Below are positions 1,554 to 41,862 of a stretch of 64,000 nucleotides of DNA, in pieces. Origin of the DNA: Candidatus Kaiserbacteria bacterium (GTDB lineage: Bacteria > Patescibacteriota > Minisyncoccia > Phycocordibacterales > UBA918). The DNA lies in the NCBI GenBank assembly GCA_031430855.1, contig JANPCG010000012.1, forward strand, positions 496 through 64,495. The letters run 5' to 3'. Numbering within the stretch: position 1 is the first letter of the stretch; each line of letters starts with the position of its first letter. The notes beneath the pieces are model-generated. The model did not search any database and was not told where the DNA came from. It saw only the letters and a program-made list of their open reading frames with translations. The translations under genes and the position numbers were made by a program.

Positions 1554-1573
1554 TTATGCACAGCTTATACACA
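1554..1573. promoter_or_regulatory. DnaA-box pair upstream of dnaA (TTATGCACA, TTATACACA)
   Basis: Two 9-mers, each one mismatch from TTATCCACA, in the rpmH-dnaA intergenic region. Confidence 0.55.
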
Positions 1574-1657
1574 GTTGCGAATTTGGGGTGGTTGGGGAGG
1601 GGTACTTTTTGGTCGTTTTGTCCCGCGGGAGTTTACAGTTTTTGGTGTACCGGTATA

Positions 1658-3390: not shown

Positions 3391-4485
3391 ATGAAAATAA
3401 CTATCAACCAACAAAAACTTATACACACACTAGAACTGATCACGAGAGTGAGTATCAAACATGTCACCTTACCGGTCTTGCAGTGTGTACTTATTACAGT
3501 GAAAGATTCACAAGTTACCTTTAAAGCCACTAATCTTGAAATCAGTATTGAAGTAACGAATGAAGCCCAAATAGAAACTGACGGAATTGTTGCGGTTTCT
3601 GCCACTACCCTACTTCAAGCAATTCAATACATCACAAAAAAAGATGTTGTATTATCAGTTGTTGATGGCGTATTAAGTGTTGATAGTGGAAGTGGAAAAA
3701 CGACTATTAATACTATGCCGTATGATGAGTTTCCATCTATAACAAAACTTACTACCCCAGGGGCGACGATTCAAAAACAATTTTTCTCCCTCGGTATCAA
3801 AACAGTTGGGTTTGCTGCGTCGCAGTCATCAATTAAACCAGAACTTGGAAGTATTTTTATCCAACAAAAAAGAGAACACTCTCTCACCTTTGTGGCAACA
3901 GATAGTTTTCGCCTAATGGAAAAGACAGTCCCGCAAAAAAACTTTGTTCTTGATCAAACATTACTTATTCCGCAAAAGAACGCAGTGGAGCTCGCTCGAA
4001 TTTGTGATTTACTTGAAAGTGACCCTGTACTCATAATTACTGAAAACCAATGTGCTCTCGCTTTTTCAGAAGGGGTCTATATAACGTCACGACTCATCTC
4101 AGGTTCATTTCCTGACTATGAGCAGATAATTCCTAAAGAGTACAGTACACACACCACTGTGCTCAAAAATGACCTTCTCCAGGCCTTTAAAAAGACTCAG
4201 GTGTTTCTTAATAAGTTTATGCAAGTAACGATGAATGTTTCAGTTGCTACCTTAGTCGTTTCTTCTCAAAATGGAGAAGTGGGCACCACAACTGATACTG
4301 TATCTGTCCAAACGAATGGAAATGATTTATTGCTTAACTTTAACCAACAGTATTTAATTGATCCACTTTCACACATCAGTGACGAAAGTATTATCTTGCA
4401 TTTTGCGGGGATTGGTCGACCACTCGTGATTCAAGGAGTATCTGATACAACGTTACGCTATTTAGTGATGCCAATGAATAAATAA
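3391..4485 (+). CDS. dnaN: DNA polymerase III beta sliding clamp
   Basis: 364 aa; MKITINQQKL start; three-domain clamp length; directly after dnaA. Confidence 0.9.
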   Translation: MKITINQQKLIHTLELITRVSIKHVTLPVLQCVLITVKDSQVTFKATNLEISIEVTNEAQIETDGIVAVSATTLLQAIQYITKKDVVLSVVDGVLSVDSGSGKTTINTMPYDEFPSITKLTTPGATIQKQFFSLGIKTVGFAASQSSIKPELGSIFIQQKREHSLTFVATDSFRLMEKTVPQKNFVLDQTLLIPQKNAVELARICDLLESDPVLIITENQCALAFSEGVYITSRLISGSFPDYEQIIPKEYSTHTTVLKNDLLQAFKKTQVFLNKFMQVTMNVSVATLVVSSQNGEVGTTTDTVSVQTNGNDLLLNFNQQYLIDPLSHISDESIILHFAGIGRPLVIQGVSDTTLRYLVMPMNK

Positions 4486-17311: not shown

Positions 17312-17759
17312 TTTGCATGATATTCGCAGTCACTATAACGTCGGAGCGATTTTTCGTACTTGTGATGGAGCCGGAGTAGATAAAGTATTTATAACAGGCT
17401 ATACTCCCGCTCCGCTCGATCGGTTTGGTCGAGTGGTACCTGAAATCCATAAAACATCTCTTGGTGCGAGTAGTATGGTTCCGTGGGAAAGGTTCGAAAC
17501 TACCGAAGCGGTGGTGTCTGATTTTAAAAATAAAGGAGTGGCAGTAATTGCGGTTGAGCAGAGTCCGAAGTCTATATCTTTGTATGATTTTACTCCGAAG
17601 GGTGATGTGGCGTACATATTTGGAAATGAAATTGAGGGAGTGCCACAATCTATTTGTGCGGTGGCTGATGCGGTGCTCGAGATTCCGATGAGAGGTCAAA
17701 AGGAGTCACTCAATGTATCAGTTACGGCTGGTATTGTATTATTTCATAGTCCGGTATGA
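17298..17759 (+). CDS. trmL: SpoU/TrmH-family tRNA 2'-O-methyltransferase (TrmL-like)
   Basis: 153 aa SPOUT fold: VILHDIRSHYNVGAIFRTCDGAG, IFGNEIEGV, SLNVSVTAGIVLFH. Confidence 0.75.
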   Translation: MKYVILHDIRSHYNVGAIFRTCDGAGVDKVFITGYTPAPLDRFGRVVPEIHKTSLGASSMVPWERFETTEAVVSDFKNKGVAVIAVEQSPKSISLYDFTPKGDVAYIFGNEIEGVPQSICAVADAVLEIPMRGQKESLNVSVTAGIVLFHSPV

Positions 17760-19267
17760 ACAACGTGTATAAAATATCAAAAAAATACCTAACCTCCGCA
17801 TTATTTGTGGCAATTATAACGGGAATTGCCTTGGGAATTGGTTTTATTGTGCCACCACTTGCGGGTCTCGCAGTAGTAGGGGTTGTGGGTTGTATCTATC
17901 TCATTGAGGGGGCAAAAAATCCCTGGTGGGCAGGAGTTTATATTGGTATCGCTTGGACGATAAAGTCTCTCTGTTCTATTTTATGGTTCTGGGCAGCGTA
18001 CCCAATTTCCTGGATAACGCTCACTTCACCGGTTACAGAAATTTTTATTATTTTTCTTCATTGGATGACCGGGGCTCTCTGGCTAGGGGCTGGTGGCGTT
18101 TTTTTTGGCATCGGATTAAAATATATAGAAGGGGTAAAAATCCTTCCCCGCCCCCTTTGGTATATTTTAGTTCCCGTATGGTGTGTGGTCGGTGAACTTG
18201 CTGGTGCCCTGACTTTTTCCTTTATTGGTTTAGGGCCAGGCTCTTACCTGCAAACCTATTTTAGTTTTGGTTTTATTGGCTACCTGCTTGGGTATTCGCC
18301 ATTTGGCATTGCAATAGCCCCGTATGGAGGGGTATATACCCTTACCGCCATAATGGCTTCGCTCGGGGTTTTCTTTTTTGTGGTACTTAAGAATCGTTCG
18401 TATCAGATTGGTTTGGCAGGCCTTGTCGGCGTAATCATTTGTGCGGTTGTGCCATTTTCCCTTCCTCCCACCCCCAGTAGTAATATGAGTGTCATTAGTA
18501 TCAATACTCGTTTTGACGCCTATTATCTAAGTAATCAAGCCGGGCAGCAGGGGAGAGCACAAACTCTCGAGACTGCGGTTACCGAAGCTCTCGTCTATAA
18601 TCCTCAATTTATTATCTTGCCCGAAGATTCTCGGTACCTGATGAGTCAGTTTGGGTCAGTACAAGAGAATAGTATTGTTAATAAATTTCTATTTACGCAC
18701 CCGGACGGTCGTTCAATTATTATTGATAGTGGACGAGAGGATTTATTAGATGGCACAAGTGTATTGCGAGCCCATCTTTTAGATGCTACCAATAACCAGT
18801 TTTTACAATTTGATAAACAGTATCTTGTTCCGCAAGGAGAGTATGTCCCGGCCCTTTACGGTGCAGCCATGCATTTGTTTGGGTATGGTCCCTTTGTTGA
18901 AAAGATTGAACAAAATAATTCCTATCGGCCAGGGCCATTCCTGCAAAGTGAAACTGTCCCGGCACATTTACCGGCAATACTTTTTTGTTTTGAAAGTGTC
19001 CGTCCAGATGGAGTTCAGTCGATTACTCATAATCGGCAGGTGCCATTCGTCGCTCATCCCATTTCTCATGCCTGGTTTCATTCATCGAAGGTGTTATGGC
19101 AACAACTTGATGTGATGCTTCAAATTCAGGCTCGCCAGTCTGGTGTACCGATAGTGAGTGCGGGAAATATGGTACCGGGCAAACTGTACTTACCTGACGG
19201 CACTATAGAGACCGGAGAATTACTAGTGGAGGGAGAGCGGTACGAACTCCGTTTATTTTCTTTTTAA
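17756..19267 (+). CDS. lnt: Apolipoprotein N-acyltransferase-like (multi-TM plus CN-hydrolase domain)
   Basis: About 230-aa polytopic N-terminus followed by a nitrilase-like domain with ILPE and ILFCFES (Glu/Cys) motifs. Confidence 0.5.
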   Translation: MNNVYKISKKYLTSALFVAIITGIALGIGFIVPPLAGLAVVGVVGCIYLIEGAKNPWWAGVYIGIAWTIKSLCSILWFWAAYPISWITLTSPVTEIFIIFLHWMTGALWLGAGGVFFGIGLKYIEGVKILPRPLWYILVPVWCVVGELAGALTFSFIGLGPGSYLQTYFSFGFIGYLLGYSPFGIAIAPYGGVYTLTAIMASLGVFFFVVLKNRSYQIGLAGLVGVIICAVVPFSLPPTPSSNMSVISINTRFDAYYLSNQAGQQGRAQTLETAVTEALVYNPQFIILPEDSRYLMSQFGSVQENSIVNKFLFTHPDGRSIIIDSGREDLLDGTSVLRAHLLDATNNQFLQFDKQYLVPQGEYVPALYGAAMHLFGYGPFVEKIEQNNSYRPGPFLQSETVPAHLPAILFCFESVRPDGVQSITHNRQVPFVAHPISHAWFHSSKVLWQQLDVMLQIQARQSGVPIVSAGNMVPGKLYLPDGTIETGELLVEGERYELRLFSF

Positions 19268-25950: not shown

Positions 25951-27315
25951 ATGTCCAATGAAACAACAACGCTGGGAAACGAGCGTGATCTTAAGATCGA
26001 ATACGTTTCCATCTCGGAACTAACGTCACCAGAATACAACCCTCGGTTCTGGAGTGAAGAAAATAAGGAAGAACTTAAACAAAGCATTATTCGCTATGGA
26101 GTGGTAGATCCACTTCTGGTAAATAGTGCAGAAGAACGAAAAGGAATTGTGATTGGAGGAAACTTCAGACTCAGTGTCTTGAAGGAACTTGGTCACGATA
26201 CAGTACCAGTTGTATATATCTCCATCCCTGAACTCGAAAAAGAAAAGGAGCTGTGTCTTCGATTGAACAAAAACCAAGGTGAGTGGAACATGGAACTCCT
26301 GGCTCAATTCGATGAGACGTTCTTGTCTGACCTCGGCTTTGATTCAACAGAGCTCGATAAAGTTTTTGAAGAAGACGACAACGAAGAACAGTTTGACCTG
26401 AAGAAAGAATTGGAGAAAGTCGGTATTGATAATATTACCGTAGAGAAAGGTGACGTCTACGATCTCGATGGGTCACGCCTTATGTGCGGAGACTCCACTA
26501 TCGAAGCAGACATGCTCAAGCTATGTGGCGAACACAAGATAGATATGGTCATGACTGATCCGCCGTACATCCTCGATTATCTTCACGGCAAGACCAAGAA
26601 AGATGGAGAAGCTGTGACCGGCTTTGGTGCCAAGAAGAATCGTCGCTACCTTGAGACTGATGTATTGCCTGATAACTTCACGGAGTTATGGATGGATAAC
26701 GTGGTGAAGGTACAAAATGAGAACTTCTCAATTATCGTCTATGAGAACTGGAAGAATATTCGTACCGTTTGGGACGAGCTTGAAAAGCATTGGAAGGTAC
26801 GCAATATGCTCGTCTGGCATTTACCGAATCGTAACCAAGGATATGCGGGAAAGCTTAAGTTCTTCTCCAAGTACGACATCGCCATGGTTGCTACTTCAAC
26901 TGAAGAAACCGTGCCTGATGTTGAAACTGAGGATATCGAACTTGTTCAAAACGAGTACGATACCGCACTCTTTGCTATCTCTGGAAAACCGCAATGGGAG
27001 GGTTATCAGAAAGGATCAAAGTACTGCCCGACTGACTTCATTGAGTACAACGCTTCCGATGAGAAGTCGTCTGGTCAAGGAATCATCTTTGGCACGAAGC
27101 CAATTCAGATATTGATTCCGTATATCAAGATACTTACTAAACGAGACCAATTAGTATTGGAACCTTTTGGTGGTAGTGGCTCAACTCTGATTGCCTCAAC
27201 GAAACTAAGTCGGCGTTGCTTCATCATGGAAAAGTCTCCTGTCTATGCAGAGGTGATTCTTAATCGCTGGGAAAAGCTGACAGGAAAGAAGCGAGTTAAG
27301 GTCAATCATGAGTAG
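25951..27315 (+). CDS. ParB-like nuclease domain fused to a beta-class DNA methyltransferase
   Basis: N-terminal ParB/Srx fold (VDPLLVN..IVIGGNFR); C-terminal DPPY motif IV preceding FGGSGST motif I (circularly permuted order). Confidence 0.75.
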   Translation: MSNETTTLGNERDLKIEYVSISELTSPEYNPRFWSEENKEELKQSIIRYGVVDPLLVNSAEERKGIVIGGNFRLSVLKELGHDTVPVVYISIPELEKEKELCLRLNKNQGEWNMELLAQFDETFLSDLGFDSTELDKVFEEDDNEEQFDLKKELEKVGIDNITVEKGDVYDLDGSRLMCGDSTIEADMLKLCGEHKIDMVMTDPPYILDYLHGKTKKDGEAVTGFGAKKNRRYLETDVLPDNFTELWMDNVVKVQNENFSIIVYENWKNIRTVWDELEKHWKVRNMLVWHLPNRNQGYAGKLKFFSKYDIAMVATSTEETVPDVETEDIELVQNEYDTALFAISGKPQWEGYQKGSKYCPTDFIEYNASDEKSSGQGIIFGTKPIQILIPYIKILTKRDQLVLEPFGGSGSTLIASTKLSRRCFIMEKSPVYAEVILNRWEKLTGKKRVKVNHE

Positions 27316-28437: not shown

Positions 28438-29166
28438 CTAGCAAACCGTTGAGCCAATTGTCTCAAGTTTCTCCTTCACCTTCTCCCATTTAGGGAACTT
28501 CTGATCAAGGAAGGTAAAGAATCTTTTATCGTGATTCTTATACTTCATATGGCAGAGTTCGTGAACGATAACGTAGTCGATACAGTCCTTTGAAGTGTGA
28601 ATCAGTTTAGGGTTGAGGAATATCTTGTCTTGGTTCAAGAAACTACCCCAACGCTTCTTCATTTCTCGAATAGATAGCTTCGGCGTACTCTTGAAATCAA
28701 AGCGAGTAAGCATCTCGGTAAACCTATCTTGAAAGATGAGGTTAGTTTTCTCTGCAAACCAATTCTCGATAAGCTTCTTGTTGTGTTTGCCGTCGGTAAC
28801 TGATTTTGTTGTGAGAACAACGAGTTGACCTCGGGTAAGCGAAACAGAATCCTCTCTAGCTTTTCGAACAATGAGTTTGTATTGTCTACCGAGGTATAGG
28901 TATCCCTCGCCTGACACATATTCTTTTTCGTACATCTTTCGCTGGTACTTCTTAAAGAACGAAAGTTGCTTCTCTAGCCAGAACCACTTCTTTTGGAGAA
29001 AGGCTTCAATTCTTTCGCCTTCAGCTTTGAGGGGACACTTTACGATAATGCGTAAATCTGGAGTAACCGTGAGGCTCAGCGTTTTACGGTCTTGTTTAAT
29101 AAGTTGATATTCGTATATGAATGTTCCGAAGATAAATTCCTTCATATGATTATAAGAACAAATCAA
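28438..29166 (-). CDS. DUF45/YgjP-like zinc metallohydrolase (HExxH)
   Basis: VIVHELCHMKYKNHD motif; this family is commonly encoded beside type I hsdR. Confidence 0.6.
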   Translation of the reverse strand: MICSYNHMKEFIFGTFIYEYQLIKQDRKTLSLTVTPDLRIIVKCPLKAEGERIEAFLQKKWFWLEKQLSFFKKYQRKMYEKEYVSGEGYLYLGRQYKLIVRKAREDSVSLTRGQLVVLTTKSVTDGKHNKKLIENWFAEKTNLIFQDRFTEMLTRFDFKSTPKLSIREMKKRWGSFLNQDKIFLNPKLIHTSKDCIDYVIVHELCHMKYKNHDKRFFTFLDQKFPKWEKVKEKLETIGSTVC

Positions 29167-32100
29167 AATTATGCTCTGCTAGGAGCAGGGCGGTTTCAAT
29201 AACAACCTTGATCTGGTCGTTATCAATATCAATACCTTTCTCTCCCTTCACGATGTCATACAGATAGTCGTCAATACTATTTCGCATCTTGCGCTTCACG
29301 TCCGCATTTTTATACCAGTCGACGATTGCCTCGTTCTTGATGATGGTGAATATGTCGAGAATAGTAGCGATATAGACTTCCTCGCTGAGGTTCAGGTTAT
29401 CAAGTTCGACTCGAAGATTACGGTAGAACACATCTGAACCCTTTTGCGATTCAATCTGTTCTGGAAGGCTTTCATCTTTCTTGTTCACCACGTCGTCACT
29501 AATGAGTTTCATTTGCTTCAACGCTTCAACATCAGCGAGTTTGCCTTGACGCATCTTCTCAAGAATCTCTGAAATCTTCTTAGAAAACTTCTCGTAGAAT
29601 TCAGGATCACTATCCATTTTCTCTGAAATGGTTCTTTCAGTTTGTGCCGCGATTGCCTCAGCTTTTGACTTGTCAGAACCAAGGTTAGCCACCGCTTCCT
29701 CAAACTGCTTTCTGTCGGTAATGTTTACCTGCTTTGTGAGCAACTCAACGCCACGAGCATCAACATATTTATCAAGGATATTAATGAGTGATTGTTTGTA
29801 CTCAAGTAGATCAACACGGTCGGCATACTTTAGACTCGCAGACTTACGAAGTTCCAAGAACTTCTTGAGTTCACGCTTGTAGAGGTCGAGGTGATCGAAT
29901 TCATGAACGAAGTCTTGTAGCACAAAACACTCGTTCAGGTTTTTAATGAATGCATTAAGAGTCTTGTAGAACGTCTCACGTTTTGGTTGGTCAGATAGGA
30001 ATTGGAGATAGACTTCATCATCGGTTGATCCTTTGATTTCATTAAATAAATCATGGACGGTTCCATAACTCTGTTCTAGGTCTTGTATCTTCTCAGACAC
30101 ATCAATCAGAGTGCCTTTAACATCAGTCTCATCATAGTTACCGAAAAGCTTCATCGCTGTGTCGATGTTCTTAGCATTCTCGGAATAGTCCATGATGTAT
30201 CCGGCAGTCTTAGGCTTTTCCTTCTTGTTCTCAAACAAACGGTTTACACGCGCAATAGCCTGAAGCAAGTTGTGATCTTTTAGATCCTTGGCGAGATAGA
30301 GTACGGTGTTGCGTGGTGCATCAAAACCAGTGAGTAGTTTGTCGCACACAATAATGACCTCGATGCCATCGTCGTTATACTTAAAACTCCCGACGACATC
30401 CTTTTCGTATTTATCGACGCTACTGTGATTCTTACGAACTCCTTCTAGGTATCCGACTACTTCTTTCTTGTGGAGATTCTCCTCGTCTCCGTCTTCATGT
30501 TCATCAGAAATAATAACCGCCGTACGAATATTTCCCCGAGTCTCAAAGAACTTCTGGAAAAGGATGGCTGAGTATTTCGATGGAGCAACAATCTGAGCCT
30601 TGAGTCCGGTGTACTGGAAGTTCCTAATAAAGTGCGTTTCTATATCGTACGCAATTTCGACAATACGCTGAGGATTGTCTTTAATTATCTTACTTCCAAT
30701 GTATCGTTGTAGCTCTTTCTTCTGCTTCTCATTAAGTCCTTCGGTGATACGTTCAACATGGCGGTCTATTTGTTCCGCATTCTGAATGAGGTCTACATAC
30801 CGACCCTCATAGATAAGAGGGAGAATGATGTTATCAGCGAGAGCGTCATCAATGGTGTACTTATCGATGTAATCACCGAACTTCTTCCAACTCTCTCGGT
30901 CTTTCTTCATGAGTGGCGTACCAGTAAATCCGATGTAACAGGCATTTGGAATGATTCGATTCATCTCAAAGTTCGCCATACCGTTCTGACTTCGGTGTGC
31001 CTCATCAATAAGCACAAAGATATTTTTATCGTCGTCAACAAATCCCGTGCTCTTTTTTGCCGCAGATTCAAACTTCTGGACAAGCGTAGTTACTACCGAT
31101 AGATCCTTCTCTTTAATGAGGTCAATCAAGTGCTGACCACTGGTAGCCTGAACAACCTCTTTCTTGAGGTTACAGTTCTTAAACGTATCTTTGATCTGTT
31201 TATCCAAGTCACGACGGTCTGTCACAATAATGACTCGTGGATTGAGAATATGAGGATCCTCAATAAGAGCCTTCACAAACATCACCATAGTCAGTGACTT
31301 ACCTGATCCTTGGGTATGCCAGACGAGCCCACCTTTTCGGCGAGTGATCTCGTGGTCAGTTACTTCTTCCTCTTCCACTCGCTTCAACATCTTATGGATA
31401 GCAAAATACTGCTGGTAGCGTGAGAGCTTCTTTACTCCTGCGTCAAAGAGAATGTAATTTTTGGTCAAATCCAAAAGGCGTTTCGGCTCAAAGAGTGAAA
31501 ACACCCCTCGGTCTTGTTCTGTAGGGAGGCGGTCGGTTCTTTGTTTGTGACCATCCGTATAGCCGTTGAGGTCTTGTAGTACCTGAGCGTACACATCAGC
31601 ATCAATAGGCTTCTGAATCAGAGCGGTTACTTGTTCGTTAAATGTTTCTAGATCTGTGCCTTTTTCTTTCCATACCGCATAGAATTTGTTCGGTGTGCCA
31701 GTTGTTCCGTACTGTAGTTCCTTGCCGTTGGTAGCCACAAGGAGCTGGGTGTATGTGTACAGATTAGGGCAAAACTCAGAACTTTGGTTACGGTTCATTT
31801 GGTTAATCGCTTCACTTACCGCAACGCTCGACTTCTTGTTTTCAATGACTGCAAAAGGTAGCCCGTTAACGAACACCACGATATCTGGTCGTATGTTCTG
31901 CTTACCACTACAAGCATATTCAACAGATACGTGAAAAGCGTTATTGGCAATGTTTTCAAAATCTATGAACCGAAAGTTCTTTGATACTTTTTTACCGCCA
32001 TTATTAACCTTAATGGTCTTACCACCACTCGTCGGCATGATGGTGTTGTATATCTTCTGAGCAGTATCTATGAGTCCTTCGTATTGGATATGCTCAAGTT

Positions 32101-32341
32101 CATCAATAGCGTCACGTACATCTTTCTCACTGAATTTATAATCAGTACCATCGACCTCGTATCCATTGATCTCCATCAGTTTCTCTGTAGCAATATCAGC
32201 CAAGATGAAGTTTGAAGTATTGCCACGTTGCTTCAAAGCCTCCTCAACAGAAACATAGGTGTAGCCCGTATTCAGAAGAAGCTCCACAAATGGAAGTTGC
32301 GATTGTCGTGCCTCGTCAAAATTTACTTTATCTAATGTCAT
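29150..32341 (-). CDS. hsdR: Type I restriction enzyme R subunit
   Basis: 1063 aa; helicase motif I HTQGSGKSLT and DEAH (VLIDEAHRSQ). Confidence 0.9.
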   Translation of the reverse strand: MTLDKVNFDEARQSQLPFVELLLNTGYTYVSVEEALKQRGNTSNFILADIATEKLMEINGYEVDGTDYKFSEKDVRDAIDELEHIQYEGLIDTAQKIYNTIMPTSGGKTIKVNNGGKKVSKNFRFIDFENIANNAFHVSVEYACSGKQNIRPDIVVFVNGLPFAVIENKKSSVAVSEAINQMNRNQSSEFCPNLYTYTQLLVATNGKELQYGTTGTPNKFYAVWKEKGTDLETFNEQVTALIQKPIDADVYAQVLQDLNGYTDGHKQRTDRLPTEQDRGVFSLFEPKRLLDLTKNYILFDAGVKKLSRYQQYFAIHKMLKRVEEEEVTDHEITRRKGGLVWHTQGSGKSLTMVMFVKALIEDPHILNPRVIIVTDRRDLDKQIKDTFKNCNLKKEVVQATSGQHLIDLIKEKDLSVVTTLVQKFESAAKKSTGFVDDDKNIFVLIDEAHRSQNGMANFEMNRIIPNACYIGFTGTPLMKKDRESWKKFGDYIDKYTIDDALADNIILPLIYEGRYVDLIQNAEQIDRHVERITEGLNEKQKKELQRYIGSKIIKDNPQRIVEIAYDIETHFIRNFQYTGLKAQIVAPSKYSAILFQKFFETRGNIRTAVIISDEHEDGDEENLHKKEVVGYLEGVRKNHSSVDKYEKDVVGSFKYNDDGIEVIIVCDKLLTGFDAPRNTVLYLAKDLKDHNLLQAIARVNRLFENKKEKPKTAGYIMDYSENAKNIDTAMKLFGNYDETDVKGTLIDVSEKIQDLEQSYGTVHDLFNEIKGSTDDEVYLQFLSDQPKRETFYKTLNAFIKNLNECFVLQDFVHEFDHLDLYKRELKKFLELRKSASLKYADRVDLLEYKQSLINILDKYVDARGVELLTKQVNITDRKQFEEAVANLGSDKSKAEAIAAQTERTISEKMDSDPEFYEKFSKKISEILEKMRQGKLADVEALKQMKLISDDVVNKKDESLPEQIESQKGSDVFYRNLRVELDNLNLSEEVYIATILDIFTIIKNEAIVDWYKNADVKRKMRNSIDDYLYDIVKGEKGIDIDNDQIKVVIETALLLAEHNFDLFL

Positions 32342-32345
32342 ATGT

Positions 32346-33623
32346 TTATGAGGTTATTTTGGCTGATAATGTTTCAGGTGTTCGGATGGTCCCAGTGATT
32401 AGGTTGTTGAGGAGATATCTTTTCTGTTCTTTGATGATGGACAGTTTCTTTTCCAGCTCGGTTATTTCTTTATCTGCGGTTATTAATATTTTTACAATGG
32501 CTTCTTGTTCTTCAATAGGAGGGAGTTTTAATTCAAACTTTGCCATATCCGATCCATACAGGTGAAAGACTGTGGTGCCTGAAACAAGTTTGATGACGTC
32601 TTTTTTATTTAGATTAACTAGGTAACAAAAGAAGAGTCCATTCAAACTACCATTGGATCTTATGATTAAGATATCTCCTCCTAAAATGATCCCATCTTTA
32701 TCTAGATAACTTGCTGTAGACAAACCTCGGGGAGTAACATCGGAAGTTGGCATGAGGATATCGTTTACTTTCGAAAGAACCATACCTTTATTGTAGTTTG
32801 TTTTGCTTATGATGTTCTCTATATACTCAGCGTACTTAGTAAATAGCTCTCCATAATGTATGGCTTCGTATTTTCCTTCAGAATCTAGGTCGTTCTTAGG
32901 CAAACCTTTACCTTTTTTAAATGACGCAATTTCTCCAAGTTTTACAGACTTCCACTTCTCACCAAATCCAGTTAATCGTCTTTTACCAGTTAGTAAATCC
33001 TGCATCAGACTTTTCTTGATCTGCTTTTTTACTTCAATTTTTCGCGTAAGCCTTTTAATTATCTGGTCCCAAGTTTCTATAACAGAGATAATACGACTTT
33101 GTTCTAGTAGGGGTGGGAGAGCAAGTTTGAATTTTTTAATCAACGGAATCGTCAATTGTGGCTGGGCACTGCCGAATGATACTCGCTTGAGCTCTCTTAA
33201 GAAATGAGACGAAATAAAATATTTATAGAGGAAGGCAGTCTCTAAATCAGTATCTACAGTTTTGTTTCTTAGTATTGCCATCCCAGAGTTAATCCTTACA
33301 TCAGCAAAAGGAACGTTCTCAGAATATGAAGCCACACTACCGATTGTGCCTCTGGTTGTAATCACAAGATCACCTCTTTCGAGCCTTCCTTTATTCATTG
33401 ATGAGTCCTTTGCTTTTGAAATAAATTGATTCTCACTAAAATTAAAACCTTGTTTTGTAACATTTGTGGCAGTAAGAAAAAGACAAAAACCATCAGTTGA
33501 AAAATCATCCTGATGCGGGTAGTTTTTACCCCTATCGCCGTCAATAACTTTTACCCCAACTTCCTGCAAAGTTAAATTTCTCCATCCTTGGGGTATATTT
33601 TTTTGTGATTGGTTAGTTTTCAT
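32346..33623 (-). CDS. hsdS: Type I restriction-modification specificity subunit
   Basis: Two TRDs separated by conserved LALPPLLEQ / LKLPPIEEQ coiled-coil spacers. Confidence 0.85.
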   Translation of the reverse strand: MKTNQSQKNIPQGWRNLTLQEVGVKVIDGDRGKNYPHQDDFSTDGFCLFLTATNVTKQGFNFSENQFISKAKDSSMNKGRLERGDLVITTRGTIGSVASYSENVPFADVRINSGMAILRNKTVDTDLETAFLYKYFISSHFLRELKRVSFGSAQPQLTIPLIKKFKLALPPLLEQSRIISVIETWDQIIKRLTRKIEVKKQIKKSLMQDLLTGKRRLTGFGEKWKSVKLGEIASFKKGKGLPKNDLDSEGKYEAIHYGELFTKYAEYIENIISKTNYNKGMVLSKVNDILMPTSDVTPRGLSTASYLDKDGIILGGDILIIRSNGSLNGLFFCYLVNLNKKDVIKLVSGTTVFHLYGSDMAKFELKLPPIEEQEAIVKILITADKEITELEKKLSIIKEQKRYLLNNLITGTIRTPETLSAKITS

Positions 33624-33625
33624 AA

Positions 33626-34936
33626 TTAACTCCCATTTAAAACCACATCTTGCCTAGCCTTAGCAACACAAATGTTATTCTTTATGGCATAGCACTCAAC
33701 ATAATGATTGCCAGAATATTTTGTATCCTCTATTTCATTTTTAGTTCGATTATCAGTTATTTCTCCTCTTGGCTGATCACAAGAACTATCGTTCTTAACT
33801 TTCCATTTAAAGATATTTACATCTGGAGAGTTTCCCGATATTAAGAATTTAATCTTCCTGTCTACGCTAATTAGCCCAATTTTATCTAGAATAAATTCTC
33901 TAAAACCACCCCTGCGCACTTGGACTTCTCCGCAGATCTTAAAATTGTATTGTTCTTCAAGTAAAGTTTTAATATTTTCGTCAAATATAAATTTCTCAGA
34001 CGGCGATCTCTTGTAAAAAGAAATATCTACTAGATTATCTGTAGAGTCTGAATCTCTCAGGTTTTCAAGTTTTATTAAAAAACCATCTCGAGCACAGAGT
34101 ATCTTTTCTTTCTGATCGGGTGTGAGTTTCGCTAGGTAATCATCAATAAATTTCGCACTATTTGCTCTATCTTGAATTTGATTAGGGGTATTAACAACGT
34201 TTGGTAAGTTTATAAAAAATGTAAAAATGGCATCAAAAATTTCAATGTTTGGATTTTGTTTAAATATTTTTGTAATTACTTGCTCAAGGTGAAAAGACTT
34301 GAGTTTCAAGTTTTGATCTTTATCGCATAGATTATTTTTCCATCTTTTAACAAACTTCACTGTCTTTCTAAAATCACTATTTATACCAACCTCAGTAGCA
34401 ACTTTAATGTATCCTCTAGGATCAGAGTTAATCCAAGCGTTTGTATCAGAAGCATTCCAAGTCAAAGTATTACGTTTGTTGTGGTTTCTCTCTTTAATCA
34501 CTTCCGGAACCTTATATGTATCCTGATTGAACTCATTTTTTCCGTATGAATAAGCAGGAACAATATCAACTGATAAAATCATGTCAGTGTTTTGCCAAAA
34601 CTCTACAGTAACTGAGTGTGTCTGTAGAGAAACCTTCTTCATGTAGCTTGTCGGATTTCTATAGCTACCACTTATTTCATTAAATAATTTTTGAAGTGTT
34701 GCTGAAGGTGAGTGATCATTTTCATCCCAAGAACCAAGAATATATAGAATATCCAGATCATGAATAGGTGTTATTGCTGTGAAGCGAGGATATGATCCTA
34801 TTTGAATACAGTTATTTACACCAAATAGGTCATTAAAAGACTGGTAGACTTTACCTATCAAATCTTGCTCGGTAGGTTTAGGTGAGAGTGTCTTCGCATA
34901 CTCTCGCAATTTTGAGTTGAATTTATCTTTTGTCAT
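33626..34936 (-). CDS. cGAS/DncV-like nucleotidyltransferase (CD-NTase/SMODS-type Pol-beta NTase)
   Basis: IGSYPRFTAITPIHDLDILYIL (GS-x11-DxD) and a third acidic motif SVDIVPA 52 aa later; 436 aa with a long helical C-terminus; coupled between hsdS and the 2-TM gene. Confidence 0.55.
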   Translation of the reverse strand: MTKDKFNSKLREYAKTLSPKPTEQDLIGKVYQSFNDLFGVNNCIQIGSYPRFTAITPIHDLDILYILGSWDENDHSPSATLQKLFNEISGSYRNPTSYMKKVSLQTHSVTVEFWQNTDMILSVDIVPAYSYGKNEFNQDTYKVPEVIKERNHNKRNTLTWNASDTNAWINSDPRGYIKVATEVGINSDFRKTVKFVKRWKNNLCDKDQNLKLKSFHLEQVITKIFKQNPNIEIFDAIFTFFINLPNVVNTPNQIQDRANSAKFIDDYLAKLTPDQKEKILCARDGFLIKLENLRDSDSTDNLVDISFYKRSPSEKFIFDENIKTLLEEQYNFKICGEVQVRRGGFREFILDKIGLISVDRKIKFLISGNSPDVNIFKWKVKNDSSCDQPRGEITDNRTKNEIEDTKYSGNHYVECYAIKNNICVAKARQDVVLNGS

Positions 34937-35468
34937 AACTTGTGCTCAGTAGAGTTGTCACTATGTCATTAATAAGACGACCTCGCATATTAACAATAGT
35001 AGTAAATTGCTGATTGTTTATTGCCTTCATCATTTCTGGAGAAATCACAATTGATGGGGGTGTGAACTCAGGAAAGTAAAAAATAAAACCCGCATTTGAT
35101 TTCTTGTTTGAAAGAATAGTTTTTATCTGGTCTTCAGTAAAAGACTGATAGTGTACTAACGCCAATGTAGTTTCTTTTACTTTTGACAGTGTGTCCGGTT
35201 TGATTTGGTAGATATTTTTTTCTCTAAAAACACCCGTGTCAACTAAATCTGTCTTTAACGATGAAAACATATCGTCATTAGCCACTATCGCAATTTTTCT
35301 ACTCCAACGACCAAACCCTAACCTTAAAAAGAGTGGATATACACCAAGAGTCCAACTCGTTATCGCCCAGATGAAAAGACATATAGCAAAGATCGTTGTT
35401 AGCGCTCCGACAATATTTACAAATATAGTTAAGAAATTTAGTAGAGTCATATATTTATTTAATTCCAA
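34923..35468 (-). CDS. 2-TM membrane protein with C-terminal alpha/beta domain, candidate effector partner of the NTase
   Basis: Two N-terminal TM helices (residues about 8-52) then an about 125-aa soluble domain; overlaps hsdM stop and NTase start by 14 nt each. Confidence 0.45.
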   Translation of the reverse strand: MELNKYMTLLNFLTIFVNIVGALTTIFAICLFIWAITSWTLGVYPLFLRLGFGRWSRKIAIVANDDMFSSLKTDLVDTGVFREKNIYQIKPDTLSKVKETTLALVHYQSFTEDQIKTILSNKKSNAGFIFYFPEFTPPSIVISPEMMKAINNQQFTTIVNMRGRLINDIVTTLLSTSYDKR

Positions 35469-36963
35469 GTTCTTTTAGATAAACAGCCATTTGTTTTTCA
35501 AGCTTCTGTAGCTCTGGTTCAAGTTCTGCAAGTTCTTTCAGGTTCGCAGTAATATCTACAGGGGCTTCTTCGGTGAAAGTATCTACGTAACGAGTGATGT
35601 TGAGGTTGAAATCGTTCTCCTCAATCTCTTTAAGACTCACTTTGCGAGCAAACTTTGCTACATCTTTACGAGTCTTGTAGGTAGAGTAAATCTTCTCGAT
35701 GTTTTCATCGGTCAGAATGTTCTGAGCCTTATTTGCCTTGAACTCCTTAGATGCTTCGATAAAGAAGACATCTTTCTTGCTTTCATTCTCTCCGCCTTTT
35801 TCTCGCGAACGGTCTAAGACGAGAATTGCTACTGGAATACCTGTGGTCTGGAATAGTCCGGCTGGGAGCCCAATAACTGCTTCGACGACGTTTTCCTTTA
35901 GAAGTTGTTCACGGATTTTACCCTCGGCTCCACCTCGAAAGAGAACACCATGAGGAACAATAACGGCAATGCGCCCTGTCTTTGGTTTTGCTGTTTCCAC
36001 CATGTGCGTGATAAAGGCAAAGTCACCTTTATCCTTCGGTGGAGTACCACGCCAGAAGCGCTTGTACTTGTCTGCATCCGCATGTTCCGCACCCCATTTC
36101 TTGAGAGAGAATGGTGGGTTCGATACTACCGTGTCGAACTTCATTAGACGATCGTCTTCAACGAGAAGTGGATTGTTGAGTGTGTCACCCCATTCCAGAC
36201 GAGCAGAATCCTTTCCGTGGAGGAACATATTCATGCGAGCAAGTTGATAGGTTGAACCTGTTGATTCCTGACCATACAGAGCGTAGTTTTTAGAGCCTTG
36301 TTTCTCTACTTCTTCACCAGCAAGGAGGAGGAGACCACCCGATCCGGCACAAGGGTCACAGATACGTGCGCCAGGCTTTGGTTCGGCAAGCCGTGCTACG
36401 AGATGAGCTACATTGCGAACGGTAAAAAATTCACCAGCTTTTTTACCTGCGTCTGCACCAAACTTCTCAATCAGGTACATGTAAGAGTTACCGATGATAT
36501 CGTCATTTACTCCTGTGAGATCAATCTTTGCAAAATCTTGTACGAGGTTGCGGAGCATCTTGTTACGCTCAGCAAGTTTGCCGAGGTTTGCTTCTGAGTT
36601 GAAGTCTACAGAAAATACACCATCAAGCTTTTCCTTGTTATGGTCTTCAATACGATGGAGTGCCTTGTTTATTTCTTCACCAAGGTTGTCTTGTTCGATG
36701 ATTGAGTAAATGTAATCAAACGATGACTTCGGAGGGAGGTAGAAGCGATCCAGCTTCATTTTTTCCTCGATACGCTTTTCGTCGCCAGCGAACCGCTTTT
36801 TGTATTCGTCGTGTGCTGTCTTTGATTTATCACTAAGATACTTCAAGAAAAGCATCGGAAGTACGTAGTTCATGTAGTCCGCCGCATTGAGCTGACTGCG
36901 TGAAGAGTTTGCCGAATCCCAAAGGGTCTTATTGAGGTCTTCCTGAGTGTATTTCTTAGTCAT
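35455..36963 (-). CDS. hsdM: Type I R-M N6-adenine DNA methyltransferase subunit
   Basis: Motif I DPCAGSGGLL and motif IV NPPF. Confidence 0.9.
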   Translation of the reverse strand: MTKKYTQEDLNKTLWDSANSSRSQLNAADYMNYVLPMLFLKYLSDKSKTAHDEYKKRFAGDEKRIEEKMKLDRFYLPPKSSFDYIYSIIEQDNLGEEINKALHRIEDHNKEKLDGVFSVDFNSEANLGKLAERNKMLRNLVQDFAKIDLTGVNDDIIGNSYMYLIEKFGADAGKKAGEFFTVRNVAHLVARLAEPKPGARICDPCAGSGGLLLLAGEEVEKQGSKNYALYGQESTGSTYQLARMNMFLHGKDSARLEWGDTLNNPLLVEDDRLMKFDTVVSNPPFSLKKWGAEHADADKYKRFWRGTPPKDKGDFAFITHMVETAKPKTGRIAVIVPHGVLFRGGAEGKIREQLLKENVVEAVIGLPAGLFQTTGIPVAILVLDRSREKGGENESKKDVFFIEASKEFKANKAQNILTDENIEKIYSTYKTRKDVAKFARKVSLKEIEENDFNLNITRYVDTFTEEAPVDITANLKELAELEPELQKLEKQMAVYLKELGIK

Positions 36964-36964
36964 A

Positions 36965-37567
36965 TTATTGGTTAATTAAATTAAAGCTGGCGTTGATAAT
37001 GGTTTTTTGGATCTCTTGCTTTCGTTTGTGTATTCGTTCTTGGTCGGTGATGTTTTCCTGAAGGGCTATGATCGACTTCTGTGTATGTACTGGCGGTAGG
37101 GGTATTTCAAAGTCGTTGAGGTTTTTTACGAGGATGCTCTGTATGTATGAGGCACCTGTAACTATTTGCGATAGTGCCTTTTGTCCGTCTGTTGAATTGA
37201 GATAAAGACAGACATACTTAGGTAGCGCAGTGACGTCTTTGATTCGAATGACATGAACCGATGATGATGGCATCACACGCATCTCATTTGAGGCAAAGAC
37301 AGCAGAGCGAAACGAACCAGCTCCTGAGCCTCTTGAAACAAGCAAAATATCGTTATACTGCAAAAAGTAGGGGGTTCTGAGTGATTTACCTGAAAACAGG
37401 GTCAGATCGCCCGTTTCAACCACTTCTTGATTCGGAGAGATATTCTTGGCTTGGAGCACGAAGATGTCGCCTTTAGGGTCATTTTCAATCGGTCCACGGA
37501 ACGTGTACCCAGAAGATATGTCTGCTATTTGGCTCAATTCCTTGTGCATGTATGGAGTGTACTGCAC
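36965..37567 (-). CDS. Half-size HsdS-like specificity protein (single TRD)
   Basis: 200 aa with one TRD plus conserved IPLPPVHTQKSIIALQ spacer; 1 nt upstream of hsdM. Confidence 0.6.
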   Translation of the reverse strand: MQYTPYMHKELSQIADISSGYTFRGPIENDPKGDIFVLQAKNISPNQEVVETGDLTLFSGKSLRTPYFLQYNDILLVSRGSGAGSFRSAVFASNEMRVMPSSSVHVIRIKDVTALPKYVCLYLNSTDGQKALSQIVTGASYIQSILVKNLNDFEIPLPPVHTQKSIIALQENITDQERIHKRKQEIQKTIINASFNLINQ

Positions 37568-37657
37568 TTATTGTAAAAAAGCAAATTCTGGTCAATTTGG
37601 CAACCTACATGAGTCGCACTGGACTCTTTAGGCGTTCGGCGTCATTGATGTGTTTGT

Positions 37658-38986
37658 ATGAATCAAGCAATATCAATGCCATACGGCACCAAAATACAGG
37701 AGGTAGTACCCGTAAAGGTGAAATACTGCCTTTACGCAAGAAAATCAACGGAATCAGAAGAACGCCAAGTTCTCTCTATAGATAGCCAGATTAAGGAGAT
37801 GCTCCAGCTGGCAGACCGAGAGTGCTTGGAGGTGGTGACAATGAAGCGAGAAAGTCACTCCGCGAAGGAGACTGGGCAACGACCAGTCTTTAACGAAATA
37901 GTCGAAGAGATAGGAGAAGGTAAATACAATGGAATTCTGACATGGGCACCAGACCGTATCAGCAGAAATGCCGGCGACCTTGGGAGAATTGTAGACTTAA
38001 TGGACTCAGGCAAGCTCGAAGAAATACGCACCTTCGGGCAGAAGTTCGGCAATAATCCAAACGAGAAGTTCCTGCTGATGATTTTGGGATCACAGGCAAA
38101 ACTCGAGAATGACAACCGCGGTATCAATGTGAAGCGAGGTTTGAGAACAAGAGCTGAGATGGGACTATGGTCGGGACAAGCTCCCTTAGGTTATCTAACC
38201 CAAGGGCTAATGGATAAGAAATGCCAGCTGATTATTGACCCACTCCGAGCATCAGCAGTGAAGCAGATGTTTGAAAAAGTAGCCTACGAACAATGGTCAG
38301 GACGCAAGGTATACAACTGGCTCCGCTTCGAGCTCAACTTCTATACAAGAGGAAATAAACCTCTCACCCTCGGAGGTGTGTACCGCATCCTAGAAAACCC
38401 TTTCTACTACGGCGTCTTCGAGCGACCACGTAAAAGTGGAAACTGGTATCAAGGTAAACATACGCCACTCATCACACAGGAGTTATTCGAGAAATCAAAA
38501 GCCCAGCTCAAGCGTGATCAGATAGTGCGTGAGACTAAAGAATTTGCCTTCACGAAACTTTTCACCTGCGGATACTGTGGATCAGGTATATCAGCTGAAG
38601 AGAAATGGAAACAACTCAAGGATGGTGGAGCAAATAGATACATATACTACTCCTGCTCACGAGCGCGAGACCGCAACTGCAAGAACATGTATATCCGCGA
38701 AGAAGATTTAATACTAGAACTCCTGAAGATATTGGATAAGGTAAATATCAATGAGCTTGGTATGAGGCAGAAGCTTGAGGATGAAATTGCACGGTTCAAT
38801 ATTTTCCAACGGTCGGTACTTGGAGCCAAAGAAAAGATAAAAACAGATGCAGATACTGATATACGAAACTACGCAAAGTACATACTGAAAGAAGGTACGA
38901 CGATTGAGAAACGTGAACTACTGGCGAACTTACGATCACGGATAATGTACAAAGATAAAACGCTCACCTTGATAGATGAGCGTTAA
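37658..38986 (+). CDS. Large serine recombinase (integrase/resolvase family)
   Basis: Catalytic YARKSTESEE..SIDSQ N-terminal domain, recombinase domain and C-terminal zinc ribbon (CGYCG..CSRARDRNC); likely start at MPYGTK (37676). Confidence 0.85.
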   Translation: MNQAISMPYGTKIQEVVPVKVKYCLYARKSTESEERQVLSIDSQIKEMLQLADRECLEVVTMKRESHSAKETGQRPVFNEIVEEIGEGKYNGILTWAPDRISRNAGDLGRIVDLMDSGKLEEIRTFGQKFGNNPNEKFLLMILGSQAKLENDNRGINVKRGLRTRAEMGLWSGQAPLGYLTQGLMDKKCQLIIDPLRASAVKQMFEKVAYEQWSGRKVYNWLRFELNFYTRGNKPLTLGGVYRILENPFYYGVFERPRKSGNWYQGKHTPLITQELFEKSKAQLKRDQIVRETKEFAFTKLFTCGYCGSGISAEEKWKQLKDGGANRYIYYSCSRARDRNCKNMYIREEDLILELLKILDKVNINELGMRQKLEDEIARFNIFQRSVLGAKEKIKTDADTDIRNYAKYILKEGTTIEKRELLANLRSRIMYKDKTLTLIDER

Positions 38987-39096
38987 ATCATAAAAGTTCG
39001 GTATCTCACGTACCTCAAGCTAAGTGGGTCAAAAGACTCGCTTAATTTTTTGGCTTGAAATAAGGGTACTCGGGTCACACCGATACTTAGTTCTAT

Positions 39097-39186
39097 TGGC
39101 GGAGAGAGGGAGATTCGAACTCCCGAGGAGGTTTCCCCCCTGACAGTTTTCAAGACTGTTCCATTCAACCGCTCTGGCATCTCTCC
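39097..39186 (-). tRNA. tRNA-Ser (anticodon UGA), type II with long variable arm, CCA encoded
   Basis: Reverse complement GGAGAGATGCCAGAGCGGTTGAATGG...CAGTCTTGAAAACTG...GGGAGTTCGAATCTCCCTCTCTCCGCCA folds as a class II tRNA. Confidence 0.85.
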
Positions 39187-41121: not shown

Positions 41122-41862
41122 TCAGACGTGCGCCACGCTCCGCAGGATGTGTCCTGCCGCAGTGGTTTTGCGATCGAGGCGAGTCAAGTCATGCAGCTGC
41201 ATCTTGATCGATGGACCCATCGATTGAGGTAGGCCGAAGTGGAGCAAGAAGTTCTGACCAAGACCGTGTCGCAAAAACGACTCGGTTTCTTCGGCAATTA
41301 CTTCTGGTTTGTCGCCCATACCTGCCCGAATCACACACTCTGGCATCTCTGCCATTTGACAGCTGCAGCCACAGCCGTGACCCAGAATACGCCCGGTCGC
41401 CACGTTGATGGTCGTTTGTACATCGAAGTACAGGCGACTGCAGAGCGGCAATGCATGAAGCATCGAGTCTGCAATTTGCCAGTTCATGGCGTCGGGGAGT
41501 AGATGTTCGATTTCAGGAATCCGCTCCTCAACCGTCGGATCTTCACGGGTGCCAAGAAATGCCAACGTAGCATAGAACTGTCTCGGCAGCCGGTCGTGGA
41601 AGCGCTGGAAGATGTGTTTCATTGCACCCAAATATTCCGTCTTTAGCCGAAACAGTGGGTCTCTCAGGCGGGGCTGATATTCATCGAAAGTAAAGCTCGA
41701 AACCCCGAGGTATCCAGCCGCGAACCGTTCCGCGATTTCTTGCCCCAGTCTGCACTGGTGCATGGTGTGCATATGCTCCATGAAGCCTTGCAGTGAAGCG
41801 ATGAGATCGGGATAGAAACCGTCCTGCTTGAGGATTTCAAGCGAGGGAGTTGTATGGGGCAT
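41122..41862 (-). CDS. Hypothetical protein with GHGCGCSC Cys cluster in a GC-rich (about 55%) block
   Basis: 246 aa ORF; strong compositional contrast with its flanks. Confidence 0.4.
   Translation of the reverse strand: MPHTTPSLEILKQDGFYPDLIASLQGFMEHMHTMHQCRLGQEIAERFAAGYLGVSSFTFDEYQPRLRDPLFRLKTEYLGAMKHIFQRFHDRLPRQFYATLAFLGTREDPTVEERIPEIEHLLPDAMNWQIADSMLHALPLCSRLYFDVQTTINVATGRILGHGCGCSCQMAEMPECVIRAGMGDKPEVIAEETESFLRHGLGQNFLLHFGLPQSMGPSIKMQLHDLTRLDRKTTAAGHILRSVAHV

Follow-up and report, generated by a model that had tools for sequence, protein, structure and literature searches.

The window analysed here, a stretch of 64,000 nucleotides from contig JANPCG010000012.1 of a Candidatus Kaiserbacteria bacterium, carries on its minus strand one tightly packed operon, which extends from an HsdS-like gene to a YgjP-like peptidase gene and which harbors, between the hsdM and hsdS genes of a type I restriction-modification (R-M) system, a pair of genes of another nature. 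The first gene of the pair (34923..35450, minus strand) encodes a small membrane protein of 175 residues followed by a stop codon, and the second (33626..34936, minus strand) encodes a cGAS/DncV-like nucleotidyltransferase (CD-NTase) of 436 residues, made of a SMODS domain (Pfam SMODS, 4e-7) and a C-terminal AGS-C domain (Pfam AGS_C, 3e-16), which matches the PADLOC cyclase model PDLC00785 at 4e-184. An earlier note on this DNA had taken the small protein for a ligand-sensing membrane effector or sensor and partner of the nucleotidyltransferase, and this view is borne out by the CD-NTase neighbor, by a full-length match to a known effector model and by the conservation of the pair across many phyla. 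The protein is regarded, with good confidence, as the effector of a minimal type I cyclic-oligonucleotide-based antiphage signaling system (CBASS), namely a single-pass membrane protein that would sense a cyclic oligonucleotide and oligomerise.

The probable effector gene and its partner cyclase

The open reading frame (ORF) of the effector covers 34923..35468 (minus strand) and yields 181 residues if read from a TTG start codon. With 144 homologues in a set of 5.8 billion proteins, at E-values down to 1e-102, and 275 clusters at 50% identity in an exhaustive search, it is a real, conserved gene, far beyond a chance ORF. The ATG codon at 35450 is the likely start, rather than the TTG at 35468, because nearly all homologues are 172-182 residues long, because their alignment begins inside the longer frame, at residue 7 of the 181-residue ORF, and because on an identical metagenome contig the gene was independently called with 175 residues as well. 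Since the hsdM stop codon occupies 35455-35457, the effector ATG lies 4 nucleotides beyond it and the two genes would abut tightly without any overlap. At the other end, the effector stop codon (34923-34925) falls within the start of the CD-NTase gene, whose ATG is at 34936, and the resulting overlap of 14 nucleotides recurs with equal size in orthologous loci. The overlap at both ends that had been claimed previously is thus retained on the side of the nucleotidyltransferase, but on the side of hsdM it would require the unlikely TTG start. The closest relative of the locus occurs in a Candidatus Paceibacterota metagenome-assembled genome (MAG; locus L001), with 90% identity.

The active site of the partner cyclase, of the GS...DxD...D type, is intact as judged from its conserved residues: for G47, S48, D60, D62 and D124, conservation reaches at least 95% among the window protein and 32 orthologues. 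The pair consists of an intact CD-NTase and of an adjacent gene matching a known CBASS effector family, as expected of a type I CBASS. Neither Cap2/Cap3 (E1/E2/JAB) nor HORMA/TRIP13 was found among the operon genes that were scanned, i.e., those encoding the HsdS-like protein, HsdM, HsdS and the YgjP-like peptidase; a further ORF of 1063 residues, which stood outside that domain scan, matched by tblastn only ORFs located in R-M clusters.

Predicted membrane helix and CheY-like domain of the probable effector

The N-terminal part of the effector consists of a single predicted transmembrane (TM) helix (about residues 13-35; 35346..35414, minus strand), delineated from the hydropathy and charge of 49 homologues. 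Two TM helices had been proposed in the earlier note, an impression that arises because the first 42 residues of the window protein carry no charge. Among the 49 homologues, the uncharged core covers residues 13-41 only, i.e., 29 residues; positions 5, 8 and 12 are charged in about one third of these proteins, and position 9 is a proline in 22 of them. The AlphaFold2 monomer displays one unbroken helix from residue 3 to residue 50, along which pLDDT (predicted local distance difference test) values fall to 65 at residues 41-50, a dip that suggests a hinge in the model. A two-TM hairpin is rejected, a core of 29 residues being too short for two membrane spans, and the better reading is that of one TM helix followed by a conserved interfacial segment, in agreement with the '1TM' label given to the family in PADLOC.

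This juxtamembrane segment (35295..35345, minus strand), recognized from the invariant columns of the alignment and from the dip in pLDDT, reads G36-x-x-P39-L-x-x-R43-L-G45-x-x-R48-W49-x-R51-K52. According to the positive-inside rule, the cluster of arginine and lysine residues after the helix would place the C-terminal domain in the cytoplasm. Within the helix itself, an invariant G15 belongs to a conserved small-residue motif, G-G-x-x-T, that appears suited to helix-helix packing.

The C-terminal domain (residues 53-172; 34935..35294, minus strand) is a putative cyclic-oligonucleotide sensor. The alternation of β-strands and α-helices noticed previously is confirmed by the AlphaFold2 model (mean pLDDT 87.6), in which five strands, β1 (53-56, IAIV), a second at 80-83, β3 (96-100, LALVH), β4 (121-125, GFIFY) and β5 (150-153), are each followed by a helix. 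As modeled, the domain is a flavodoxin-like (β/α)5 module of the CheY/REC type with a conserved surface of its own. The likeness to TIR or STING domains suggested earlier did not hold, as no profile or fold match to TIR, STING, SAVED, CARF or SLOG was seen for the domain. Structure prediction and Foldseek searches, which had been recommended as a check, delivered the (β/α)5 fold but no structural relative, since nothing was retrieved at E <= 1e-3 from the PDB or from the viral structures of BFVD; the weak matches correspond to generic three-layer α/β folds, e.g., LarB, Ras and REC. At the sequence level, no Pfam or NCBIfam model matches the protein and comparison with the PDB gave spurious weak matches only (McbB, E 0.02).

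The conserved surface is best appreciated from an alignment in which CBASS members of types I, II and III, CRISPR-linked members and fusion proteins were all taken in. Across all these contexts only L69, Y125, V153, N154, R156, G157, R158, L159 and N161 are invariant. They make up the motif VNxRGRLxN[DE] at the β5/α5 junction and Tyr125 at the end of β4, so that the invariant residues gather at the C-terminal ends of β4 and β5, on the face that holds the active site in REC domains. In the window protein the signature reads V153-N-x-R156-G-R158-L-x-N161-D162 (34965..34994, minus strand); it is invariant family-wide and marks a candidate phosphate-binding site, where two arginines and an aromatic residue would fit contacts with phosphates and bases. 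This signature, together with Y125, adds to the existing catalogues a mark for the candidate binding site.

In view of this fold, a conventional phospho-accepting response-regulator receiver tethered to the membrane had to be considered, and it is effectively refuted. The domain shares 9-15% identity with CheY-like REC domains and no profile similarity; no Response_reg (PF00072) match was obtained with Pfam even at E 0.1, and hhalign of the family profile against CheY returned a probability of 0.1%. The catalytic residues of two-component REC domains are likewise lacking or variable: the acidic residues after β1 are not conserved as a pair, β3 ends with H, D, E or N followed by Y or W instead of a conserved phospho-acceptor Asp, Y125 takes at β4 the place of the Thr/Ser of REC domains, and the invariant N154 replaces the Lys of β5. 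No histidine kinase was found among the scanned neighbors that could act as a partner. A phospho-REC function is rejected on these residues, on Pfam and on hhalign.

A family shared by CBASS and type III CRISPR-Cas

The effector is a further member of a catalogued, experimentally uncharacterised family, the CBASS '1TM' effectors. It matches the PADLOC model PDLC00664 (CBASS 'Effector, 1TM') at 2e-53, residues 9-181 of the ORF aligning with positions 4-174 of a profile of 174, and, over the full length and at 5e-34, the model PDLC01057 (C3a59, trans-membrane), an accessory of the type III CRISPR systems. A third match, to Mem_04 (7e-7), is limited to the C-terminal motif; PADLOC describes Mem_04 as a membrane protein of type III operons with, possibly, a CARF domain diverged beyond recognition. 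The CBASS models of PADLOC were built from the loci that Millman et al. 2020 had compiled (PMC8565338), so that the entry of the family into the catalogues as a CBASS effector goes back to 2020; in DefenseFinder, '1TM' likewise figures among the CBASS effectors (PMC9090908). The window pair shares with the PADLOC 'Effector 1TM' the adjacent CD-NTase, the two-gene layout of type I CBASS and an identical architecture, and is distinguished by its occurrence in a Patescibacteria-like genome and by its nesting in a type I R-M operon. The PADLOC entry is a label only, devoid of any fold, ligand or mechanism.

The family is also very probably Cam2 (CRISPR-associated membrane protein 2), described by Hoikkala et al. 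2024 (PMC11229360) as an N-terminal TM helix linked to a C-terminal REC-fold domain, for which sensing of a cyclic trinucleotide was guessed in the same paper from its co-occurrence with NucC and SAVED-CHAT. The effector resembles Cam2 both by this organization, an N-terminal TM helix and a C-terminal REC-like domain, and by its homologues located inside type III CRISPR-Cas operons; unlike Cam2, the window copy is partnered by a CD-NTase instead of Cas10 and is not CRISPR-linked. A new effector type, as envisaged in the earlier note, is consequently not what the window holds, the family being already present in PADLOC as CBASS 'Effector 1TM', C3a59 and Mem_04 and fitting the description of Cam2. 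Taken by itself, the instance is unremarkable, an effector of known type within a defense island, and the remaining interest lies in the family.

For the genomic contexts, one genome per species was scanned, which led to 94 loci, 80 of them profiled. The effector loci span Patescibacteria, Bacteroidota, Pseudomonadota, Chlorobiota, Nitrospirota, Actinomycetota and others. A CD-NTase is present at 62 of the 80 loci, to which 3 loci cut by the end of a contig have to be added (65), and these comprise CBASS of types I, II and III. An absence of the gene pair outside this genome, which had been named beforehand as evidence against an effector, is therefore not what was observed. Most of the CD-NTase loci, about 40 of the 80, contain an AGS-C-type cyclase like that of the window, and about 13 a minimal SMODS cyclase of 261 residues; TRIP13 (PADLOC TRIP13, 7e-117), the hallmark retained here for type III CBASS, occurs at 8 loci, and a JAB protein, retained for type II, at 4. 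Depending on the type, the arrangement varies: at the AGS-C-type (type I) loci, the start of the cyclase usually precedes the effector stop codon by about 14 nucleotides, and at the type II and III loci the cyclase lies a few kb upstream of the effector.

Nine of the 80 loci consist of type III CRISPR-Cas operons, with Cas10 recognized in 7 proteins and RAMPs in 11, in addition to Csm2, Csm4, Cmr3, Cmr5 and Cas6. There, the effector homologue stands within the string of cas genes; the homologue of locus L033, for example, matches C3a59 (2e-69) as well as the CBASS 1TM model (2e-63). No CARF, SAVED or NucC figured among the 25 most frequent of the 63 Pfam families matched at the CRISPR loci. 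One effector family thus serves both signal generators, CD-NTase and Cas10, and belongs to the few nucleotide-signal effectors common to CBASS I, II and III and to type III CRISPR-Cas.

Two side observations concern particular contexts. In five type III CBASS loci with a CdnC-like cyclase and TRIP13 (L067, L069, L072, L077 and L079), a protein with a Fic/DOC domain directly follows the effector homologue (L067:6483-7109; same position in the other four) and matches the PADLOC candidate PDC-S23 at 1e-43 to 1e-46; a role as an additional effector or as a regulator is possible. In a Methylococcaceae MAG, the Cas10-adjacent effector homologue (L059:2278-2754) contains an in-frame stop codon, which could denote a pseudogene or a sequencing error.

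Rare proteins retrieved by the exhaustive search keep the α/β domain and have another domain in place of the TM helix. One of them, a fusion of the sort that the earlier note had advised looking for, is protein P0232, in which an N-terminal TIR domain (TIR_2, 1e-11) precedes the α/β domain; P0247 possesses a TIR-like or deoxyribosyltransferase-like N-terminus, assigned by eye in the absence of a Pfam match. TIR is a known executioner domain which is activated by oligomerisation. Since TIR replaces the TM helix, the N-terminal part of the family would be the output and the α/β domain the input, and the swap suggests that the activation step is a ligand-induced oligomerisation. These TIR-fusion variants, which favor the reading of the α/β domain as a sensor module, were not part of the existing catalogues. 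The contigs that carry P0232 are shorter than 2 kb and show no neighboring genes. On one of them (L081), direct repeats of about 135 nucleotides (L081:42-176 and L081:1445-1580), 80-84% identical and 1404 nucleotides apart, enclose the gene (327-1229), an arrangement that resembles a gene-cassette array and is possibly integron attC-like. Finally, in P0169 (284 residues), a truncated reverse transcriptase domain (RVT_1, 1e-15), corresponding to its N-terminal half, is joined to the REC-like domain in the place of the TM helix; it could be a real fusion as well as a chimera of assembly or gene calling, and was given no weight.

These fusions also bear on the possibility that the protein acts, from its anchorage in the membrane, as a regulator or sensor in control of the cyclase, for instance by tethering it or by relaying an envelope signal, the toxic output being exerted elsewhere, possibly by the R-M enzymes. 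The order of the genes, the effector gene preceding and overlapping that of the cyclase, the weakness of a single TM helix as a pore former and the typical use of REC folds as signal-relay modules would all accord with such a role. It is nevertheless improbable, because most loci contain the pair by itself, without a further candidate effector, because the CRISPR loci offer none of the CARF, SAVED or NucC families among their most frequent Pfam matches, because a TIR executioner takes the place of the TM helix in the fusions, and because R-M genes occur near only about 15 of the 80 effector loci.

Concerning the ligand, the partner cyclases of two lineages point to a cyclic trinucleotide. At the type III CBASS locus L067 the cyclase is closely related, over the full length, to CdnC from Escherichia coli MS115-1 (1.4e-94), and at the type II CBASS locus L073 it is a close relative of the synthase of cyclic AMP-AMP-GMP (cAAG), at about 1e-80. 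Both EcCdnC and the cAAG synthase are said, in work of 2020 attributed to Ye, to Lau and to Lowey, to be cyclic-trinucleotide synthases. The nearest solved relatives of the window cyclase are PaCdnD and EcCdnC, with a weak similarity (1e-7) over the catalytic core. Because the partner cyclases are related to cyclic-trinucleotide synthases, a cyclic trinucleotide such as cyclic tri-AMP (cA3) or cAAG is the leading candidate for the ligand of the effector, and this relationship provides, beyond the catalogues, a concrete molecule to consider.

Assembled, these features suggest a mechanism in which the effector would be inserted in the inner membrane with its N-terminus outside and its C-terminal domain in the cytoplasm. 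Upon phage infection, the adjacent CD-NTase with AGS-C would produce a cyclic oligonucleotide, most likely a cyclic trinucleotide (cA3 or cAAG), which would bind to the CheY-like domain in a pocket formed by the C-terminal ends of β3-β5, with the invariant Y125 and N154-x-R156-G-R158-L-x-N161. Ligand binding would then lead the effector to oligomerise, the TM helices would pack together through their small-residue motif, the inner membrane would be breached or depolarised, and the infected cell would halt its growth or die ahead of the completion of the phage cycle. The CheY-like fold, a very common one, appears to be used here as a receptor for cyclic oligonucleotides.

By its design the effector recalls Cap15 of CBASS and the CRISPR TM effectors Cam1 and Csx23, which are likewise small proteins in which an N-terminal TM segment is combined with a nucleotide-sensing domain in the cytoplasm, the sensing being predicted in the case of the window protein. 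Cap15, Cam1 and Csx23 are thought to kill by membrane disruption following ligand-induced oligomerisation (summarised in PMC11229360). Their sensor folds are distinct, however: a β-barrel in Cap15, a CARF domain in Cam1 and a novel tetrameric domain in Csx23, as opposed to the (β/α)5 CheY-like domain of the window effector, whose model, an alternating β/α three-layer domain, does not correspond to the eight-stranded β-barrel of the Cap15 type.

Several points weigh against the proposed mechanism. The structural model is that of a monomer, so that oligomerisation and pore formation are putative, and for damaging a membrane a single TM helix is minimal equipment. REC-like domains are not known to bind cyclic oligonucleotides, and the literature searches found no experiments devoted to Cam2 or to a CBASS effector of the REC type. 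The identity with Cam2 follows from matching descriptions and from the CRISPR-linked homologues, not from a Cam2 profile. With respect to the ligand, the similarity of the clade of AGS-C cyclases to CdnC/CdnD, as judged from sequence comparison, is weak.

The opposite logic, that of a Panoptes-like guard, would have a constitutively produced nucleotide keep the effector off until phage sponges or nucleases remove it and so release the effector. A TM effector is indeed held inactive by cA3 in type II Panoptes (PMC13577387), and activation and de-repression are indistinguishable from sequence alone. The partner in the window is, however, a CD-NTase with AGS-C and not mCpol, and the family serves Cas10 of type III CRISPR-Cas and the HORMA/TRIP13-regulated CdnC as well. 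Cas10 and regulated CdnC signal only upon infection, which makes activation by the ligand the simpler rule for the family as a whole and the guard logic distinctly improbable.

The R-M operon and its surroundings

The genes that enclose the effector and its cyclase belong to a type I R-M system. The first gene of the operon (36965..37567, minus strand) encodes a short HsdS-like protein of 200 residues with a single target-recognition domain (Pfam Methylase_S, 4e-10; PADLOC Specificity_I); a short HsdS-like gene likewise precedes hsdM in L005, L061, L068, L070 and L083, and might represent either an alternative specificity subunit or a remnant. The methyltransferase gene hsdM (35455..36963, minus strand; Pfam N6_Mtase, 6e-100, and HsdM_N; PADLOC MTase_I) lies directly upstream of the effector, and hsdS, encoding a full-length specificity subunit (32346..33623, minus strand; Pfam Methylase_S in two stretches, 1e-35; PADLOC Specificity_I, 3e-65), downstream of the cyclase. 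The ORF of 1063 residues already mentioned (29150..32341, minus strand) owes the name hsdR to its size, to its position and to its tblastn matches; these matches, to long ORFs in type I R-M clusters, reach at most 42% identity over about 900 residues (L061, L068). A YgjP-like/WLM zinc metallopeptidase gene (28438..29166, minus strand; Pfam YgjP-like, 2e-52; no PADLOC match) overlaps the end of the hsdR-like ORF by 17 nucleotides and is apparently part of the R-M operon.

Such a nesting is recurrent. The order hsdM-effector-cyclase is found in L002, L003, L005, L018 and L051, and the order hsdS-effector-cyclase...hsdR in three loci of Flavobacteriaceae (L061, L068 and L070). R-M genes occur within 6 kb of the effector in about 15 of the 80 loci, and the cassette is nested in type I R-M operons of at least three phyla (Patescibacteria, Bdellovibrionota and Bacteroidota). 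The hsdM genes of the related loci are only 24-77% identical to that of the window; in L002, the effector is much closer to its window counterpart (71% identity) than hsdM is (40%). The cassette has thus been exchanged between distinct R-M backbones. Defense modules embedded in type I R-M operons are a known pattern, exemplified by TgvAB in the VPI-2 island of Vibrio cholerae (PMC11411939), a paper in which Payne et al. 2024 is cited for defense genes embedded in this way. The window resembles the TgvAB case by its independent two-gene module located between the genes of a type I R-M operon that is complete otherwise and differs from it by the nature of the module, a CBASS pair instead of a type IV restriction enzyme. 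A non-exhaustive search of the literature found no paper on CBASS nested in hsd operons, and this repeated nesting constitutes a small extra observation.

Owing to its position, the membrane protein might be thought to serve the type I R-M system as an accessory subunit, e.g., a membrane anchor or a regulator of HsdM/HsdR, that stands beside the nucleotidyltransferase by accident. Its gene does lie inside the hsd operon, 4 nucleotides past hsdM, and the nesting recurs in some 10-15 of the 80 loci, but the association with a CD-NTase or Cas10 holds at about 74 of the 80 loci, most of which lack R-M genes, the cassette is shared among backbones of divergent hsdM, and the embedding of unrelated defense genes in type I R-M operons is known (PMC11411939). 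This accessory role, to which a very low probability is given, was rejected on account of the CD-NTase/Cas10 link and of the mobility of the cassette.

The R-M system and the CBASS pair are preferably read as a layered defense in a mobile island, in which the mobile two-gene cassette between hsdM and hsdS would probably form a second layer, of abortive infection, behind restriction. A tighter relationship can be imagined, in which the pair would be wired to the R-M system through co-transcription from the hsd promoter, the AGS-C cyclase being triggered by failed or ongoing restriction and the effector acting as an abortive back-up; stalled HsdR complexes, restriction fragments or anti-restriction proteins could serve as triggers. 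The recurrent nesting in R-M operons is compatible with this wiring without demonstrating it, co-location being its sole support, and the idea is considered unlikely.

The R-M/CBASS block (28438-39186) has the appearance of an integrated island whose core was acquired more recently, the stretch from hsdS to the effector (32-36 kb) having 36% G+C versus about 43% around it. The island is flanked by a large serine recombinase gene (37658..38986, plus strand; Pfam Resolvase, Recombinase and Zn_ribbon_recom), which is also found as a neighbor on the contig L083, and beside it by a gene for tRNA-Ser(tga) (39097..39186, minus strand; ARAGORN), a possible integration site of the island.

Elsewhere in the window, two ORFs, one of 503 residues (17756-19267, plus strand) and one of 246 residues (41122-41862, minus strand), gave no match with Pfam at 1e-4. 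The genes yidC (141-869), dnaA (1556-3064) and dnaN (3391-4485) show that the start of the window falls in the region of the chromosomal replication origin. About 1 kb from the R-M island, a gene at 25951-27315 (plus strand) encodes a ParB_N domain fused to an N6/N4 DNA methyltransferase, which looks like an orphan methylase.

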